A DNA stretch of 64,000 nucleotides from Escherichia coli (GTDB lineage Bacteria; Pseudomonadota; Gammaproteobacteria; Enterobacterales; Enterobacteriaceae). Below the pieces are notes generated by a model that saw only the letters and a list, made by a program, of their open reading frames with translations, was not told the DNA's origin and ran no database searches. Shown piece by piece: positions 8,376 to 43,612 of the stretch. How positions within the stretch are numbered: the stretch's first letter is position 1; every line of letters begins with the position of its first letter. The position numbers and the translations under genes were made by a program. The stretch is from NCBI RefSeq assembly GCF_048403405.1, contig NZ_CP183129.1. The stretch is one strand, 5' to 3'.

Positions 8376-8870
8376 ATGGTCATGATGATGATCTACGGCA
8401 TGTTTGTTTTTGAGCTGCGCACACTGCCGCATCAGCAGTTACAGCAAAACAAAAGCTGGCGGCATGTGAAAAATGAACGCGTTAACCGTTCAGCAAGCTG
8501 GCAGTATATAGGTGCAGGTGATGATCGCATTGTGCTTTCCGGCGTGCTTTATCCTGAAATTACAGGTGGCGAAGTGTCGCTTTCGTTGCTGACCACGCAG
8601 GCATATACAGGACGCCCCTGGCCTCTGATTGATGGTGTCGGGCAGATTTACGGCATGTATGTGCTGACTGAAACGAATACGACCCGTTCCGAGTTTGATC
8701 GCTACGGTAAGGCGAAAAAGATAGAATTTTCACTGACCCTTGAACGCTGTGATGAGGATTTGCGGGAGCGCCTGCAATCCTCATCATTCAGCGATATGCT
8801 GTCCGGCTTCAAAGATAAGGTGACATCATCTCTTAACAGCGCGGCCAGTTCAGTTAAAGGGCTGTTCTGA
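8376..8870 (+). CDS. U: tail protein gpU
   Basis: MVMMMIYGMFVFELRTLPHQQLQQNKSWRH... resembles P2 U. ORF track 164 aa. Confidence 0.9.
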   Translation: MVMMMIYGMFVFELRTLPHQQLQQNKSWRHVKNERVNRSASWQYIGAGDDRIVLSGVLYPEITGGEVSLSLLTTQAYTGRPWPLIDGVGQIYGMYVLTETNTTRSEFDRYGKAKKIEFSLTLERCDEDLRERLQSSSFSDMLSGFKDKVTSSLNSAASSVKGLF

Positions 8871-27097: not shown

Positions 27098-27412
27098 TTA
27101 TTCTGGGAATAAGGTCTGAATATTCTTTTTTATTCTATAAAAATTGCATTCAACTCCGCTAGGCTGATTATCCTGGTATGTTTCCTTGATGCTAACGGTA
27201 TTGAAGGGGAGGTTGTCCTCTGGCCATTCGGCCATCCAGTAGGCAAATGCTGGGTTGCGCTTTATGAGCGCTAGCCCAGCCAGAAAGGCCGCGCGTTGCG
27301 CGCGGCTGCGTTCGGAGGCTGGTAGGCTATCGAGGTAATTGCACGCCTCCTGTTCACTCTTGACGGCGGCGGGCTTCAGATAGAAACTTATCCGTCTGGT
27401 TGGTGTCGTCAT
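27098..27412 (-). CDS. parR: ParR-like centromere-binding adaptor
   Basis: Trimmed to ATG 27412. MTTPTRRISFYLKP...YLDSLPASERSRAQRAAFLAGLAL parallels R1 ParR (..TLDSIPQGERSRLNRAALTAGLAL). Confidence 0.8.
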   Translation of the reverse strand: MTTPTRRISFYLKPAAVKSEQEACNYLDSLPASERSRAQRAAFLAGLALIKRNPAFAYWMAEWPEDNLPFNTVSIKETYQDNQPSGVECNFYRIKKNIQTLFPE

Positions 27413-27416
27413 TGGT

Positions 27417-28376
27417 TTACTCCTTGTCCATTGCGTACAGCCCATTAACCAGAGCAAACTGTGGCACCCCGTCCGCGATGAAAGTCGCATTAACTCCGCA
27501 GACTTCGCGGATAGCGGGTGCCACAATCTCCGCCCCTCCACCGACAACCATCACCCGCCCGTAACCCGAAAAAACCGCCAGCGCGCGGATCACGCGTTGT
27601 TTCAGTGTTTCTTCCTTTTCACGAATAACCGCCATCAGGCTGGCGTAATGCGCGTCATTGTGGATGTGCTGGCGCAGCCAGGCTTCATCATGGCGATGTT
27701 CGATAATGGTATTGGCGATGTGGTGACTGGTGCGCATACCGTTAGTGGCCATCACCGACAGTACGGCATCGGCCATCAGGGAAACGCCTACGTGTGGATC
27801 GCAAAACACCTGGCTGATACCTGCCAGTTGCCCTTGAACCTTTGCCACATCCAGCGTGGTTCCGCCTAAATCCACAATCAGCAGGGATTCAAACGGACTC
27901 ATGTCAGCCAGTGCTTTAAAGCCAGCCGGAATGGATTCAGGCATAACCCGCACGTTACGGATAGTGAATGCTTCGCCGTTCTGGTACTCCACCGAGCGCA
28001 TAACGTTCGCTTTTTTGCGGTTGATGTTGGCCATGTCCGGCTGTGCGTTTGTCTCGAAATACTCGCTCAGTGGCAGGGTGACAACCACATCCACCTCTTG
28101 TGGCGTGATGCCTGATTTGACCAGCGCGTGATGAATGGCGATTACATTCACATCGCTGTACTGGTATTGCGTGTCGGTCGTCTGGACAAAGCGATCGCTG
28201 ACCGGATCAAAACCATAGCGCACGCCATCAAGCATGTAGTTCGCGGGCTGCATGCCACCGAACGGCGCAGACCATTCCGACTTGAAGCTGTTCGGGCTGA
28301 TGGCGTTGCGGCGTTCGCCATTCTCAGTCCATGCCAGCTTGATGTTGGTGGAGCCGTCGTCGATACAAATTTTCAT
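27417..28376 (-). CDS. parM: ParM/StbA actin-like segregation ATPase
   Basis: MKICIDDGSTNIKLAW...ISPNSFKSEW...YSDVNVIAIHHAL...VMPESIPAGF...LIVDLGGTTLD...GVSL...VMVVGGGAE is colinear with plasmid R1 ParM as I remember it. Confidence 0.95.
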   Translation of the reverse strand: MKICIDDGSTNIKLAWTENGERRNAISPNSFKSEWSAPFGGMQPANYMLDGVRYGFDPVSDRFVQTTDTQYQYSDVNVIAIHHALVKSGITPQEVDVVVTLPLSEYFETNAQPDMANINRKKANVMRSVEYQNGEAFTIRNVRVMPESIPAGFKALADMSPFESLLIVDLGGTTLDVAKVQGQLAGISQVFCDPHVGVSLMADAVLSVMATNGMRTSHHIANTIIEHRHDEAWLRQHIHNDAHYASLMAVIREKEETLKQRVIRALAVFSGYGRVMVVGGGAEIVAPAIREVCGVNATFIADGVPQFALVNGLYAMDKE

Positions 28377-28404: not shown

Positions 28405-28518
28405 CCGTTTACGGGATTTTTAAATCCCGCTTTCGCCTGTTTTGTGCGCGCTTCATATATCGCGGCGCGTTTTTTGCTCATTTACGGGATTTGTGAATCC
28501 CGTTTCTGTCTGTTTTTT
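28405..28518. repeat. two ~38-bp direct repeats, each with an 18-bp palindrome (CGGGATTTTTAAATCCCG 28412-28429; CGGGATTTGTGAATCCCG 28485-28502): parC-like candidate
   Basis: The repeats bracket the region immediately upstream of parM. The second copy lies inside the 3' end of gene A. Confidence 0.45.
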
Positions 28519-31293
28519 GTTTCCACTGGTCAGGCCAGTCCTCAGCAGGTTTGCTTTGCGGCGGGCGCGTTCAGTGGTTTCTCTGATTCTCTGTGCGTGC
28601 TCTGCGTCACGAATGGCGCGCAGCATGTCAGAAAGCACGGTAACGGGTGTTTTCATGGTGTTCTGGACCTGCTGAAGTGTGGATGCCAGGCGTGCGGCGG
28701 CTTCGGGGTCTGATGCCCCGAGCTGTGCCAGATAGCTGGAGACCGGGTTATGGCGGATCTCCGTGCTGCTTACGCCGTGATTACGGCTCAGGCGCTGCCA
28801 GAGCTGCGTGATTCGGCTGTCCGGGCGGGCATCCGGTTTGCGTACAATTTCAAATCCCTGCGGTGCAATGATGCTGCCGTCAACGTACAGACTGCCGCCC
28901 CGTAACAGGTGCTGCATCTGTTGTTCACCGATATGCAGGCCGAGAGATTCAGCAGACTCCCGCCATTCTTTAGCGAGTAATTCGTGGTTATCAGGCAAAG
29001 GCCGCTGCTGTTTGCGGCTCTGTGTCCAGCTCTGCATTTCATCGCTGCTGTTTTTTGCCTGTTTGTCACGAAGCGAACGCATCAGCGCCCGGCGTTCGTG
29101 TCGTTTCAGTGAGCGCATCCATTCGTTCACTTCAACGCCGTTAGGGAGCTGCGGCCACGGTGCTGGCCGTTCTTCCGGCTGTTCTGTCCCGTTGTTGTCC
29201 GTTTCCTGTACACGGGGACAGTTATTGCCACGAGTCCAAGGGGCGGCAGGGCCGCCCTGAAGGTCAAAACCATTTTCGCGGGCGCTGTCTTCCGCTTCCG
29301 GTTTGCGTCTTACCAGCTTCCAGTTATCCGGATGCGTGCACACACGGGAGGATTCCCCGATGAGTGGTGACCAGATCCCGTAAATCTGTACGCTCTGTTC
29401 GCCGTAATCGTTCATCTCATCGGCGAGGTCGTAGGCGGTGCGAATCAGGTAGTCTTTGCGTGGAACAAGTACGCCGCCCTGTTTCTCTATGTAGGTGGCA
29501 AAACATCCGGCATCAGCGGCGGCAAGAACCGCATCCATTGCGTCATCCTTCAGCCGTTGCGGGCCTTCCGGGTTGCGTGCCATCTGGCTGGCAAGGCGGC
29601 GCAGTTCACGCCATACCTGGCGGGAGGGGATGCCAAAGAACTGGAACTGGCGGACCCGGTGAAGGCGCGCCCAGCCGATGGCGCGTTCCACGCTCTCGGC
29701 CATTGATTTTCCGGTTTCGTGGTCAACGCGTGGCTTGCCCGTTTTCGGGTCGATGCCATCCACGGCACGGCTGTCCAGGTTTTTCCCGATGTAGGTGGCG
29801 ATGTAGCTGGTCGGTGTGCCTTTTGAGCCGTCGACGTACTCCGCCTTAAAGCGTGGGGTAATATCATCACCCAGCTCGTGACGATCTTCCTGAATGGCAA
29901 TATCGCGGGTGTGGGACACAATAGTGTCGATTTCTTCCGGATGAGCAAAGACCATCATATGCCAGTGCACGGTGCCGTCATGGTGAGGCTCCACCGTGCG
30001 GATGCCATACCAGCGCAGGCCGTCGCGGTTCAGTTTCTTGCGGACCGCCGCAAAAAACGTGTTAACCAGGTAATCGCTGGAGTCGCGCATGGTGGCCCCG
30101 TTCCATTTGGGATTCGGATGACCGTTCTCTGTTGTGGCGTGGTATTTTGACGGGCAGGTGACAGTCAGAAACACCGCTCTGTCGCCACGGGCTTCGGCCA
30201 GAAGTTCCAGCCCCTTCATGGTGGCCATCATTTCTGCCTTACGGTGAACCGGGTTACTTACTCCCGCGTAATACACTGTCTCGAGATCAATCGTGAACCC
30301 ATCTTCGTTTTCCAGCATGAAACTTTTCAGGAAATCGCGTGTTTTCTCGCGCTGTGCGCGAAACTCGCTTAATGCGTCCTGGCTCAGATAGGGCGATGTT
30401 TTTCTGGAAACCAGACAGGCGGCGCGGAGTTGTTCTTCTCTCCACTCGCAACGTAACAGCCACAGTTTGCGTTTCCACCATTCCGCACAGGTCAGGCGAA
30501 GGATTGCGCCCGGCAGCAGCTCCGTGTCCGGTTCGTTCCTCCGGTCTTTATCTGTTGTCAGTGCGTCATAATGTGGAGGCATGATGTGCAGGTGTAACGC
30601 CATGCGGGCCAGCATCTGATACGCCTTCAGCGTTACATCCATGGTCAGTTCGCCATCGGTCGCGCCAAAGCCATCGCAGAGTTTTTCGAAGGTGCTGCTG
30701 AACATCGCCGCCGTCATGGTGGCCAGCGTCTGTATCTGGTGTTTGTTGAGCTGCGGCAGGTAAAGCAAATCGTCCAGGCGTTCGCGTCCGGCAAGGGAGC
30801 GATAACCAGGTGTCAGCCAGCGCCCGTCAGTGCGATCCAGACGTTCGAATATTTTGCGCAGGGTTCCGCGTGCATAGCGTTCCGCCTGCCAGGTCTTTTT
30901 GCCTTTCTGACGATCGGCTTCCTGCTTCTTGCGCAGGAAAGAGAGGTGGCGGCTCAGAGGTTCTCGCAGATAACCGGGAAGCGCCTTCAGTGTGGCAAAG
31001 GCACGGGCTACCGGGTCTTGTTCTGTTGCCCGGCGCTTACTGATGATGCTCTGTGCCAGCTTTTCACGCTGTCCGGCTTCCTCAAGGGATGCCATGAGTT
31101 TTTTACCCATGGCGGATTGTGCGAAAAAGGCTTCTTCCTTCGCTTCCTGTTCTTCCTGTGCCCTTTTGTCCGCCTCAAGGTAGTAACGGATGGCGCGTTG
31201 CAGGTCGGTTTCAGTTTCCTGCCTGCGCTCCGTAAATCTGGCCGGATCAATAGCTGGTCGTGGTTCATTCCAGCTCCATGCAAACGCACTCAT
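28453..31293 (-). CDS. A: replication initiation endonuclease gpA (rolling-circle Rep), 946 aa
   Basis: Contains ..VEPHHDGTVHWHMMVF.. (HUH-like) and ..GTPTSYIATYIGKN.. (catalytic Tyr pair). ATG 31293 overlaps the upstream stop (ATGA). It is about 185 aa longer than my recollection of P2 A (761 aa). Confidence 0.9.
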   Translation of the reverse strand: MSAFAWSWNEPRPAIDPARFTERRQETETDLQRAIRYYLEADKRAQEEQEAKEEAFFAQSAMGKKLMASLEEAGQREKLAQSIISKRRATEQDPVARAFATLKALPGYLREPLSRHLSFLRKKQEADRQKGKKTWQAERYARGTLRKIFERLDRTDGRWLTPGYRSLAGRERLDDLLYLPQLNKHQIQTLATMTAAMFSSTFEKLCDGFGATDGELTMDVTLKAYQMLARMALHLHIMPPHYDALTTDKDRRNEPDTELLPGAILRLTCAEWWKRKLWLLRCEWREEQLRAACLVSRKTSPYLSQDALSEFRAQREKTRDFLKSFMLENEDGFTIDLETVYYAGVSNPVHRKAEMMATMKGLELLAEARGDRAVFLTVTCPSKYHATTENGHPNPKWNGATMRDSSDYLVNTFFAAVRKKLNRDGLRWYGIRTVEPHHDGTVHWHMMVFAHPEEIDTIVSHTRDIAIQEDRHELGDDITPRFKAEYVDGSKGTPTSYIATYIGKNLDSRAVDGIDPKTGKPRVDHETGKSMAESVERAIGWARLHRVRQFQFFGIPSRQVWRELRRLASQMARNPEGPQRLKDDAMDAVLAAADAGCFATYIEKQGGVLVPRKDYLIRTAYDLADEMNDYGEQSVQIYGIWSPLIGESSRVCTHPDNWKLVRRKPEAEDSARENGFDLQGGPAAPWTRGNNCPRVQETDNNGTEQPEERPAPWPQLPNGVEVNEWMRSLKRHERRALMRSLRDKQAKNSSDEMQSWTQSRKQQRPLPDNHELLAKEWRESAESLGLHIGEQQMQHLLRGGSLYVDGSIIAPQGFEIVRKPDARPDSRITQLWQRLSRNHGVSSTEIRHNPVSSYLAQLGASDPEAAARLASTLQQVQNTMKTPVTVLSDMLRAIRDAEHAQRIRETTERARRKANLLRTGLTSGNKKQTETGFTNPVNEQKTRRDI

Positions 31294-31679
31294 GGCTGGT
31301 ATCCCGTCACGCGCTGCCACTCCTGCGAGAAGAGGGCGGAAAGGCGGTTAAATTCAGCGGTGTATTCACTCAGCGAGGCACACCCGCCAGCAGTGCGATG
31401 CGCCAGCATTGCTGCAAATACGGAGGCCGGAGAGTCGTAATACGCCAGCAGTGATTCGCCGTGCGGTGTCAGGCAGTGCAACGCCAGTCCGTGTGGTGTG
31501 AAGTCCACGCGGTAGCAGTCGTCTACTGTGAAATAAAGGGTGTCTGCATTCTCCGGTTTTGTGGTGCGTGCTCTGTTGTCACGACCACGGATGTAGAGAT
31601 CAAATAACCCCTGAAGAACGGGAGCCAGACGGGTGTCCTGTGTGCGCACCCATCTTGTGAAGTCATGAGCGTCAATCAT
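31290..31679 (-). CDS. hypothetical early protein (129 aa)
   Basis: ORF track; translationally coupled to A. Confidence 0.6.
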   Translation of the reverse strand: MIDAHDFTRWVRTQDTRLAPVLQGLFDLYIRGRDNRARTTKPENADTLYFTVDDCYRVDFTPHGLALHCLTPHGESLLAYYDSPASVFAAMLAHRTAGGCASLSEYTAEFNRLSALFSQEWQRVTGYQP

Positions 31680-31751
31680 GCTGCAATTCTCTTTACTACA
31701 GATGTGCGAAGGCCTCCCGCCGCAAGGTGCAGAAAAGGCCCGGAACAGGAA

Positions 31752-31982
31752 TTAATGGAGTTTGTTTTGCTGCTGGATGAGCTGTTGAAGCTCGTGCAGA
31801 TCATCCGCCAGATAGCTGAAAACAGAGGCGGAATAAATGTTTGATAGTGCGTGGCTGCGCTCATGCAGCATATTGATGTGCATGATTTGCGCGACGCGTG
31901 ATGCGCGGGAAAGTCTGCGGTTGATTTCAGTCTGGATGTGACGACGCTCCGCGATAGCGCGGTGCTGTTTGCGGTCTGCCAT
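31752..31982 (-). CDS. hypothetical basic/helical 76-aa protein; predicted target of the C4-like RNA
   Basis: ORF track. The SD AAGAGG lies 7 nt upstream of ATG 31982 and sits inside the GAGCAAAGAGG box. Confidence 0.6.
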   Translation of the reverse strand: MADRKQHRAIAERRHIQTEINRRLSRASRVAQIMHINMLHERSHALSNIYSASVFSYLADDLHELQQLIQQQNKLH

Positions 31983-32040
31983 GGTGTGGCCTCTTTGCTC
32001 GGTGATAGAAATAACTCACCATCCAGAGTTGAGAATCTCG
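31983..32040 (-). promoter_or_regulatory. downstream target copy (a2/b2-like): UUCUCAAC (32035->32028) ... GAGCAAAGAGG (32000->31990, contains SD)
   Basis: Exact complementarity to the two exposed boxes of the 32120->32041 RNA. Confidence 0.6.
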
Positions 32041-32120
32041 GGGTGGCGAGACGTACAGGGTTCTCAACACCGGAGAGCAAAGAATCCGGCCCGACCGAAG
32101 TCGGCCCCGTACGCCCCGCC
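32041..32120 (-). ncRNA. C4-type antisense RNA (P1/P7 c4-like), ~79 nt
   Basis: Hand-folded. A 16-bp closing stem GGCGGGGCGUACGGGG/CCCUGUACGUCUCGCC (13 WC + 3 GU) is followed by a 3' ACCC. Inside are the hairpins CCGAC-UUCG-GUCGG and CCGGA-UUCUUUGCUC-UCCGG, then single-stranded UGUUGAGAA. TTGCCA-17-AATTAT lies immediately upstream (32149->32121). Confidence 0.6.
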
Positions 32121-32161
32121 ATAATTCTGACGCGAAAAAGACGTGGCAATACAGTACGCAC

Positions 32162-32182
32162 AAAAAAACCGCTTGCGCGGTT
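32162..32182 (-). terminator. intrinsic terminator-like hairpin inside the early operon
   Basis: The minus strand reads AACCGCGCAAGCGGUUUUUUU. Confidence 0.5.
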
Positions 32183-32184
32183 AT

Positions 32185-32216
32185 GCGCTTTGCTCTGTAT
32201 CGGGTTGAGAATCCCG
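32185..32216 (-). promoter_or_regulatory. upstream target copy (a1/b1-like): CGGGAUUCUCAACCCG hairpin ... AGAGCAAAG
   Basis: Same two boxes as the downstream copy, with an 8-nt spacer instead of 27 nt. Confidence 0.55.
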
Positions 32217-32304
32217 GCACCCGTTTTATGAGGTGCAGCGGAAATGTAACCTGACCGATTGAGGCATGGCAAGCGGTTTTTTTGTGTGTGCATGTTCTGG
32301 TTTC

Positions 32305-43428: not shown

Positions 43429-43612
43429 TTGCCTGATGCGACGCTGGCGCGTCTTATCAGTCCTACGCAGGAGTAGAACCGTAGGTCGAATAAGGCGTTC
43501 ACGCCGCATCCGACAGCCGTTGCCTGATGCGACGCTGGCGCGTCTTATCAGGCCTGCGCAGGGGTAGAACCGTAGGTCGAATAAGGCGTTCACGCCGCAT
43601 CCGACACGCATT
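43429..43612. repeat. BIME: two tandem ~91-bp units, each with an inverted pair of REP elements
   Basis: TTGCCTGATGCGACGCTGGCGCGTCTTATCAG..GTAGGTCGAATAAGGCGTTCACGCCGCATCCGACA occurs twice (starting at 43429 and 43520). This is the canonical E. coli REP sequence. Confidence 0.9.

Follow-up and report, generated by a model that had tools for sequence, protein, structure and literature searches.

A C4-type antisense RNA cassette with co-varying box pairs in the early operon of a P88-like prophage of Escherichia coli

Introduction

The c4 RNA of phages P1 and P7 is the type member of the Rfam family of C4 antisense RNAs, which counts 593 members in Proteobacteria and phages. The mature RNA of the family is ~77 nt long and is cut from a longer transcript by RNase P, and a CACC-like tail follows its long closing stem. 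The wide distribution of the family among proteobacterial prophages has been on record since 2010 (PMC2864571). Here, we analyze a locus of this kind in a stretch of 64,000 nucleotides (nt) from Escherichia coli (contig NZ_CP183129.1, as a whole referred to as the window), for which a preliminary description had proposed a C4-type antisense RNA with a duplicated two-box target at 31983-32216, on the minus strand and within the early operon of a P2-like prophage.

P1 and P7 carry specificity variants of one immunity locus, immI (c4-icd-ant), in which the RNA is a secondary immunity determinant beside a protein repressor. According to the section on Citron & Schuster 1990 in the supplement of Weinberg et al. 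2010, the boxes a' and b' of the RNA have their partners upstream (a1b1) and downstream (a2b2), b2 lies over a ribosome-binding site (RBS), an anti-repressor is the controlled product, and competition of a1b1 for the C4 segments belonged to the original proposal for P1. In the satellite P4, the immunity region consists of a constitutive promoter (PLE) followed by seqA, the CI RNA, seqC and, downstream, a gene of the epsilon family, which the P4 record labels 'helper derepression protein'. P4 relies on the CI RNA alone, and its epsilon protein acts as an anti-repressor on P2 C. In both P1 and P4, termination follows from the translational block. A 214-amino-acid (aa) open reading frame (ORF; 8812->8168) runs across seqA, CI, and seqC from a start 5' of the P4 promoter, and a Shine-Dalgarno (SD) sequence that overlaps seqC precedes the last 65 of its codons. 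Forti et al. are said to have named, in 1999, the P4 genes eta and kil and to have found that translation across this region prevents termination, so that transcripts from the upstream promoter are insensitive to immunity.

Two further groups of cassettes are relevant for the comparison. In Gifsy-1, the leader of the isrK-orf45 (STnc1160)-anrP region is the Rfam isrK family itself, and transcripts read through its terminator, a stable RNA is formed downstream by processing, the leader is complementary to the downstream RNA, and the output is an anti-repressor; the short leader RNA trans-activates, and the authors draw the analogy with P4 seqA and CI (PMC4825925). The isrK match corresponds to the 'c4-a1b1' motif of Weinberg et al. 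2010 (PMC2864571), and the Rfam models C4 and isrK have already been used to detect relatives of P4 CI and seqA in satellites (PMC10111431). In N15 (cA, encoding the CA RNA, then gp31 and antC) and in the C4-Rha cassettes of lambdoid phages (mEp460, Stx2a phages), a terminator is found just 5' of the RNA and an anti-repressor 3' of it.

A literature search for 'C4 antisense RNA' in P2-like phages returned no description. Titles and abstracts of the Xuanwuvirus papers found do not mention the RNA, term searches of the P88 and PhiSM papers found it unmentioned, and a 2025 review gives c4 only for P1/P7. The element described below is a known kind of RNA cassette in a new host phage group, and not a new mechanism.

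The RNA, its leader, and its boxes

We consider it likely that the early operon of the P88-like prophage in the window carries a self-contained RNA immunity cassette of the P1 c4/P4 CI/N15 CA type. The components assigned to it, in the direction of transcription, are the following.

32243-32272, minus strand: predicted cassette promoter, P4 PLE-like (TTGCCA, 18-nt spacer, TACATT), with a predicted start near 32236
32162-32236, minus strand: a1b1 leader RNA (Rfam isrK, equivalent to the c4-a1b1 motif and the P4 seqA region), two hairpins and then an intrinsic terminator
32204-32211, minus strand: box a1 (UUCUCAAC), in the loop of the second leader hairpin
32187-32195, minus strand: box b1 (AGAGCAAAG), single-stranded, between hairpin 2 and the terminator
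32160-32182, minus strand: intrinsic terminator of the leader, AACCGC-GCAA-GCGGTT then U7, from the terminator scan
32041-32120, minus strand: C4/CI-type antisense RNA of ~80 nt with ACCC after the closing stem, from Rfam, fold, and compensatory changes
32074-32082, minus strand: box b' (CUUUGCUCU), in the loop of hairpin P3 of the C4 RNA, from the complement search and co-variation
32061-32068, minus strand: box a' (GUUGAGAA), in the single-stranded junction from P3 to the 3' arm of the closing stem P1, from the complement search and co-variation
32028-32035, minus strand: box a2 (UUCUCAAC), 5 nt past the ACCC tail of the C4 RNA
31990-32001, minus strand: box b2 (CGAGCAAAG), continuing into AAGAGG, the SD of ORF76
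31752-31982, minus strand: ORF76, homologue of the P4 epsilon 'derepression' (anti-repressor) protein and first gene 3' of the C4 RNA

The Rfam scan covered the whole window and gave three matches, two of which, C4 and isrK, are adjacent and on the same strand. The C4 model (RF01695, gathering score 45) matches 32126->32039 on the minus strand with 78.5 bits (E = 1e-13, model positions 1-87 of 87). This is the search by which the preliminary description had proposed to check its claim of a C4-type RNA, and the lack of a match, which it had named as counter-evidence, did not occur. The isrK model (RF01394, threshold 50) matches 32236->32162 on the same strand at full length, with 63.1 bits. The minimum free energy (MFE) structure of 32122->32037 (minus strand; -47.6 kcal/mol, z = -3.9, with 0/200 dinucleotide shuffles equally stable) is the structure of the Rfam model, in which a 17-bp closing stem encloses a CCGAC-UUCG-GUCGG hairpin with its UUCG tetraloop, a GCCGG(A)-loop-(U)CCGGU hairpin, and the single-stranded GUUGAGAA. 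The fold that had been drawn by hand is thereby reproduced, with one base pair more than the 16 bp originally drawn for the closing stem.

Both box pairs, upstream and downstream of the RNA, lie where they had been placed. On the minus strand, the 8-mer TTCTCAAC is found at 32211->32204 and again at 32035->32028, with its complement within the C4 RNA at 32068->32061, while GAGCAAAG is found at 32195->32188 and 32000->31993, with its complement at 32082->32075. Taken singly, the 8-mers have other occurrences in the window at about the chance rate; the signal above chance is the ordered triple arrangement of the boxes together with its co-variation in relatives. Likewise, the reported position of b2 over the SD of a 76-aa ORF is correct: AGG follows directly after b2 (GAGCAAAGAGG), the box running on into AAGAGG, and 7 nt then lead to the ATG of ORF76 at 31982.

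The promoter assigned to the cassette has 9/12 consensus matches in the promoter scan, and its -10 hexamer ends 7 nt ahead of the first isrK model position. Both hexamers are invariant across 45 distinct aligned relatives, and the terminator stem of the leader is invariant in 22 representatives. The ~40-nt 5' leader past the terminator, the acceptor-like stem, and the ACCC tail are consistent with release of the C4 RNA by RNase P. In the MFE fold of the full leader, b' and a' are paired with a2 and b2 in cis, and this predicted pairing matches the 'translationally inactive' long transcript of Gifsy-1 (PMC4825925). A second promoter before the C4 RNA (32149->32121) was considered and rejected, given that its -35 is T/C polymorphic in relatives and that its start would lie within the closing stem.

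Co-variation of the boxes among related loci

Related P88-like (Xuanwuvirus) loci were collected with ORF76 as probe. The scan of the genome collection gave only 3 of them and the scan of viral contigs supplied the main set; with phage records included, the total is 86 loci. While ORF76 is nearly invariant in this set, the RNA region is ~82-89% identical, and the differences are concentrated in the boxes. The 86 loci contain 12-13 box combinations, built from 5 a-types and ~10 b-types, and in every combination a1, a', and a2 change together, as do b1, b', and b2. An example of a natural heterologous type is that of locus L053, with the boxes CUUGUGUAG/ACUGCGAA. For 22 representatives, the pairings were written out explicitly and the pairs of each helix counted.

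Helix b1:b': compensatory changes in 6/9 pairs, 100% of cells paired
Helix a1:a': compensatory changes in 4/8 pairs, 92.6% of cells paired
Helix b':b2: compensatory changes in 5/9 pairs, 97% of cells paired
Helix a':a2: compensatory changes in 4/8 pairs, 92.6% of cells paired

When the partners were shifted by 1-3 columns as a control, overall pairing was ~40%. The last two pairs of b':b2, the ones reaching the SD, are invariant. Compensatory pairs are also present inside the C4 RNA, three in the closing stem and two in the first hairpin. Conservation and co-variation of the boxes in related prophages had been raised as a point on which the original claim could fail, and compensatory changes were found in all four inter-box helices. 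The mean of the summed duplex energies of the two exposed C4 segments with the downstream leader is -24.9 kcal/mol for cognate and -14.3 kcal/mol for non-cognate combinations, and strong off-diagonal energies occur only among types with a shared box. At the level of sequence, this co-variation is the signature of specific RNA-RNA recognition under diversifying selection, that is, of putative immunity specificities.

The C repressor types of the same loci were assigned by tblastn. The same C type is found with different box types and vice versa, and the C region assorts independently of both the box type and the epsilon-like protein. Since box type and C type assort independently, the specificity of the RNA would be an immunity determinant independent of C. 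The C/Cox region itself (2.3-4 kb upstream of ORF76, L001-L086) is highly mosaic, with at least two unrelated Cox types.

The epsilon-like gene and the reading frame across the cassette

ORF76 scores 32.5 bits on the Derepression protein family (PF25738, cut-off 27), for which P4 epsilon is the top-scoring member in this analysis with 170 bits. The BLASTP comparison of the two proteins gives 32% identity over 50 aa (E = 6e-9). The variable sites of ORF76 are distributed as 20/16/33 over the three codon positions, and this concentration at third positions indicates that it is a real gene. Among the solved structures no relative of ORF76 was found, and NCBIfam models gave no match to ORF76, to ORF129, or to the 205-aa frame introduced below. 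The homology with epsilon suggests an anti-repressor activity for ORF76.

The preliminary description had reported a gap of ~320 nt without a credible ORF at this place, which does not hold, as a 205-aa frame (32293->31676) spans the gap. The frame and the genes that follow it are:

31676-32293, minus strand: 205-aa reading frame from the ORF list, spanning leader, C4 RNA, and a2b2; a candidate P4 eta-like 'translated bridge'
31290-31679, minus strand: ORF129 (phrog_3237), a context gene, its ATG overlapping the stop of the 205-aa frame
28453-31320, minus strand: replication endonuclease gpA (Pfam Phage_GPA, 438.9 bits), with its true start probably slightly downstream of 31320

The 205-aa frame starts 21 nt 5' of the cassette -35. 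Its overlap with ORF76 is out of frame, and its stop codon shares an ATGA with the start of ORF129. An in-frame ATG and an open frame to the same stop are kept in 55/59 distinct relatives, indels within the frame are compensated, and the TGA at +304 is conserved. Immediately 5' of the ATG, about nine different sequences are found, most of which contain, a few nucleotides before the ATG, the stop codon of the gene ahead. A random placement of ~40-60 substitutions, as seen in divergent relatives, leaves the frame open ~25% of the time. That the frame is kept for the act of translation, by which ribosomes from the early operon would be carried into ORF129/gpA, has in our view roughly even odds.

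The gene that follows the frame is of the ORF129 type in 19 of the 86 loci, and a different gene stands there in most others. In the two phage records checked (L001 and L002), the replacement gene is annotated as starting at the same +303, with the ATGA overlap.

Comparison with the described cassettes

The architecture of the cassette is closest to the P4 immunity region (seqA-CI-seqC-epsilon) and to Gifsy-1 isrK-STnc1160-anrP, more than to P1. The precedent put forward at the outset, the c4 RNA of P1/P7, stands with regard to the C4 family, the a1b1/a'b'/a2b2 layout, and b2 over the RBS, as well as to the role as a secondary determinant beside a protein repressor, but not as the nearest architecture. 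The icd/ant genes controlled in P1 are not homologous to the epsilon family, and P1 is a plasmid prophage; by BLAST, the C4 RNA of the window is closer to the lambdoid/N15 copies, P1 not being among the matches listed.

In P4, the CI RNA scores 74.9 bits on the C4 model and the seqA region 60.8 bits on isrK, in the same order as here and 5' of epsilon. The P4 leader also has a terminator-like hairpin followed by a U-run, and its downstream box runs into an SD. The P4 sequence of promoter, seqA, CI, seqC, and an epsilon-family gene downstream is found here as well, and the 214-aa ORF across the P4 region has a counterpart in the 205-aa frame. However, the ORF that directly follows seqC in P4 (kil) shares the frame of the long ORF and precedes epsilon, whereas here the epsilon-like ORF76 comes first and is out of frame. 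The distance from CI to epsilon is ~245 nt in P4 and 57 nt here, the alpha primase-helicase of P4 contrasts with the rolling-circle endonuclease gpA, and P4 is a satellite without structural genes, whereas the cassette here stands in a complete P2-like phage context with its own C/Cox switch. The box sequences are unrelated to those of P4. Because an in-frame kil and the satellite gene set are absent, the cassette is not 'a P4' but the same kind of cassette in a helper-type phage. The a' of P4 (UUCUCAC, L006 ~8446-8452) resembles a1/a2 of the window (UUCUCAAC) and not its a' at 32061-32068, and the a' segments of the P4 and window C4 RNAs are roughly complementary to each other, which is probably a coincidence. 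As a protein-level homologue of the P4 214-aa ORF, the 205-aa frame was rejected, the similarity not being significant (E = 0.087), and ORF129 was rejected as a homologue of P4 orf151, to which it has no similarity.

Gifsy-1 differs in being a lambdoid prophage, in having another anti-repressor family, and in that its C4-equivalent region is read as the small orf45, translationally coupled to anrP, with the leader as activator. At the nucleotide level, the C4 RNA here is 79-82% identical to that of N15 and of the lambdoid C4-Rha cassettes, which belong to other phage families and have other anti-repressors (Ant, Rha). In mEp460 the cassette is also placed in the early operon, just 5' of the replication genes, but there the Rha coding sequence (CDS) and the frame that crosses the RNA form one fused frame. 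C4 relatives are found 5' of anti-repressors in Stx phages and Salmonella phages, too. The close relative in mEp460 (L090, 1040-2191) lies inside an annotated 384-aa 'Rha' CDS, and the one in N15 (L091, 1454-2825) is annotated as a protein, 'gene 32 transcriptional repressor' (cA), with a terminator before it and gp31 and Ant after it.

Proposed mechanism and alternative explanations

Following the described systems, we propose that a transcript would start near 32236 from the conserved sigma-70-like promoter (32272->32243) and that most transcripts would stop at the leader terminator (~32160), giving a short IsrK/seqA-like a1b1 RNA. Read-through transcripts would hold the C4 structure, and a 5' cut by RNase P, as in P1 and P4, would yield the ~80-nt RNA 32120->32041. 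Its b' and a' would pair with a2 and b2, in cis when unprocessed and in trans once processed, and the b':b2 helix, reaching the ORF76 SD, would block translation of the epsilon-like anti-repressor homologue. If the analogy with P1 icd-ant and P4 kil holds, transcription of the RNA left untranslated would tend to end prematurely, and no ORF129/gpA would be made from the cassette promoter. The a1b1 leader would compete for the same boxes, acting as a decoy or as an activator, as for Gifsy-1 IsrK. In lytic growth, transcripts from the early promoter would carry ribosomes on the 205-aa frame across the cassette into ORF129/gpA, insensitive to the RNA like P4 eta.

It could be argued that the stretch simply codes for protein, the 205-aa ORF being an Ash-family protein or a 'transcriptional regulator' and the RNA-like features incidental. 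NC_049391 annotates the frame as a CDS (gp51), some RefSeq genomes name it 'ash family protein', and PV468777 has it as 'similar to ash family protein'; the frame matches PHROG 'transcriptional regulator' families with E = 1e-15 to 1e-7 and, as described above, is kept open in relatives. We nevertheless regard this explanation as very improbable. The variable sites of the frame are spread evenly over the codon positions (38/44/42), and where it overlaps ORF76 the excess falls on its second position. With 18.6 bits, the frame does not reach the cut-off of 26 for Phage_ASH (PF10554), the Pfam and PHROG matches are confined to residues over isrK and C4, significant protein similarity to the equivalent ORF of P4 is missing, and the three-site nucleotide co-variation has no protein-level explanation. 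On the side of the protein families, Phage_ASH and the PHROG regulator/repressor families phrog_995, 821, 6928, and 3960 match only residues overlying isrK and C4, both here and in the long ORF of P4. What Phage_ASH and several of the PHROG 'regulator' families describe appears to be, for the most part, the translated sequence of the conserved RNA cassette.

The other two explanations accept the RNA and differ in what its main output would be. P4-type replication immunity could be the purpose, in that pairing of the C4 RNA with nascent a1b1/a2b2 would lead to premature (Rho-dependent) termination and keep gpA off in the lysogen and in homo-immune superinfecting phages, with ORF76 incidental. 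The P4-like layout and the match of P4 CI and seqA to the same Rfam models speak for it, as do the position of the cassette 5' of gpA in 79/86 relatives, the note in the 186 record of a terminator in A that is active when A is untranslated, and the independence of box type from C type, which is expected for a second immunity determinant; moreover, P4 CI has been described as pairing with seqA and seqC and causing premature termination (PMC4825925, PMC10111431). On the other hand, b2 over the SD is the P1-type signature of translational control, and a Rho-dependent site is not identifiable from sequence. We hold this reading to be possible yet somewhat doubtful, and it does not exclude a translational block. 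Alternatively, activation of the IsrK type could be the main event, the full transcript being locked in cis and the short a1b1 RNA titrating a'b' in trans and opening the ORF76 RBS, with the processed C4 RNA as a by-product or buffer. Consistent with this, the full leader is predicted to have b'/a' paired in cis with a2/b2, a1b1 co-varies with a'b' as tightly as a2b2 does, and in Gifsy-1 translation of the downstream anti-repressor goes up more than 100-fold when IsrK is supplied in trans (PMC4825925). Against it speaks that in P1, P4, and N15 the repressor, as defined genetically, is the processed RNA; the N15 record carries the label 'cA secondary immunity repressor'. Such an activation is also one part of the same system and not a rival to it; as the main event we find it unlikely.

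Several observations weigh against the reading of the locus as a self-contained RNA immunity cassette and against parts of the mechanism outlined above. RNase P processing, the translational block, and polarity enter the scheme by analogy, as does all of it that goes beyond the sequence; polarity on ORF129/gpA and replication immunity as the main purpose, in particular, would follow P4. No LexA-box-like site was found near the cassette, with window-wide counts equal to chance, and there is no obvious input signal; nor does the lack of similarity between ORF129 and P4 orf151 fit a P4-type region. The epsilon-like protein is at least 91% identical across the 86 loci while the neighbouring C repressor ranges from 100% identity to undetectable. 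As it remains this constant next to a mosaic C/Cox region, the protein does not co-evolve with the adjacent repressor, and its target may not be the repressor of its own phage; it may be a conserved one or lie in other prophages. With regard to the translated bridge, the 205-aa frame has no third-position excess, and its openness may be partly compositional, given that the C4 region of the window is GC-rich and has only one of its three frames closed.

The RNA had also been put forward as a second control layer over replication and partition functions. For replication, this corresponds to the P4-type replication immunity considered above. The location in the early operon of a P2-like prophage with a C/Cox switch is confirmed; the directly controlled gene would be ORF76, and control of gpA and parMR by the C4 RNA is something that we only infer. 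At a broader level, and tentatively, P88-like P2-type phages might possess two independent immunity systems, namely, the protein C/Cox switch and a P4-type RNA cassette with at least a dozen modular natural a/b specificities. The latter would gate an epsilon-like anti-repressor and lie inside a frame translated only for the act of translation, by which early transcripts would cross to gpA while cassette transcripts would be shut off. If true, the P4 immunity/derepression module shares ancestry with a module resident in helper-type phages, and in roughly one E. coli genome in five the competition between prophages is shaped by RNA-based hetero-immunity. For the P2-like group, a secondary immunity of the P4/P1/N15 type with many specificities independent of C, together with a P4-epsilon homologue placed inside helper-type phages, would be relevant to prophage induction, to competition in polylysogens, and to the evolution of P4-like satellites versus helpers. 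Irrespective of the mechanism, side results are an RNA mis-annotated as protein families, a dozen natural specificities, and a conserved frame across the cassette.

Prophage context, distribution, and annotation

The genes surrounding the cassette are P2-like and comprise an integrase, a helix-turn-helix (HTH) repressor divergent from a Cox-family gene, small early genes, GPA, and ParM/StbB. The nearest phage records are P88, P88_4B11 and relatives (Xuanwuvirus, Peduoviridae), and Citrobacter phage PhiSM. In P2 and 186, the early regions gave no match to either C4 or isrK. The classical view of P2 is that of a non-inducible phage. P88 was obtained following treatment with mitomycin C, in an experiment with no uninduced control (PMC5285337), and PhiSM is released spontaneously (PMC6456863).

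A 301-nt stretch of the locus was found in 1177/5426 complete E. coli genomes, O157:H7 included, and the locus is either an unannotated gap or mis-called as a 'transcriptional regulator' or 'ash family' protein. An O157:H7 RefSeq record shows a 322-nt unannotated gap without an ncRNA feature. Other records label the stretch 'transcriptional regulator', 'ash family protein', or 'hypothetical protein', and no RNA gene is listed over it in the RefSeq rows sampled.

The third Rfam match of the window is naRNA4, a nucleoid-associated RNA derived from REP elements (43484-43554, plus strand, 75.1 bits), which marks host chromosome outside the prophage. In the PV468777 record, an STnc130 sRNA (Rfam, 137 bits) at L001 790-924, beside the integration site near dmsA, likewise belongs to the host flank. 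A perfect LexA-box-like CTGT-N8-ACAG lies within gpA (29206-29221, plus strand). Directly 3' of gpA (27098-28376, minus strand), a ParM protein (StbA_N and ParM C-terminal domain, 319 aa) and a Plasmid_stab_B protein (149 aa) form a partition pair. P88-like phage records annotate this pair as well, and it points to maintenance in the manner of a plasmid as an option.

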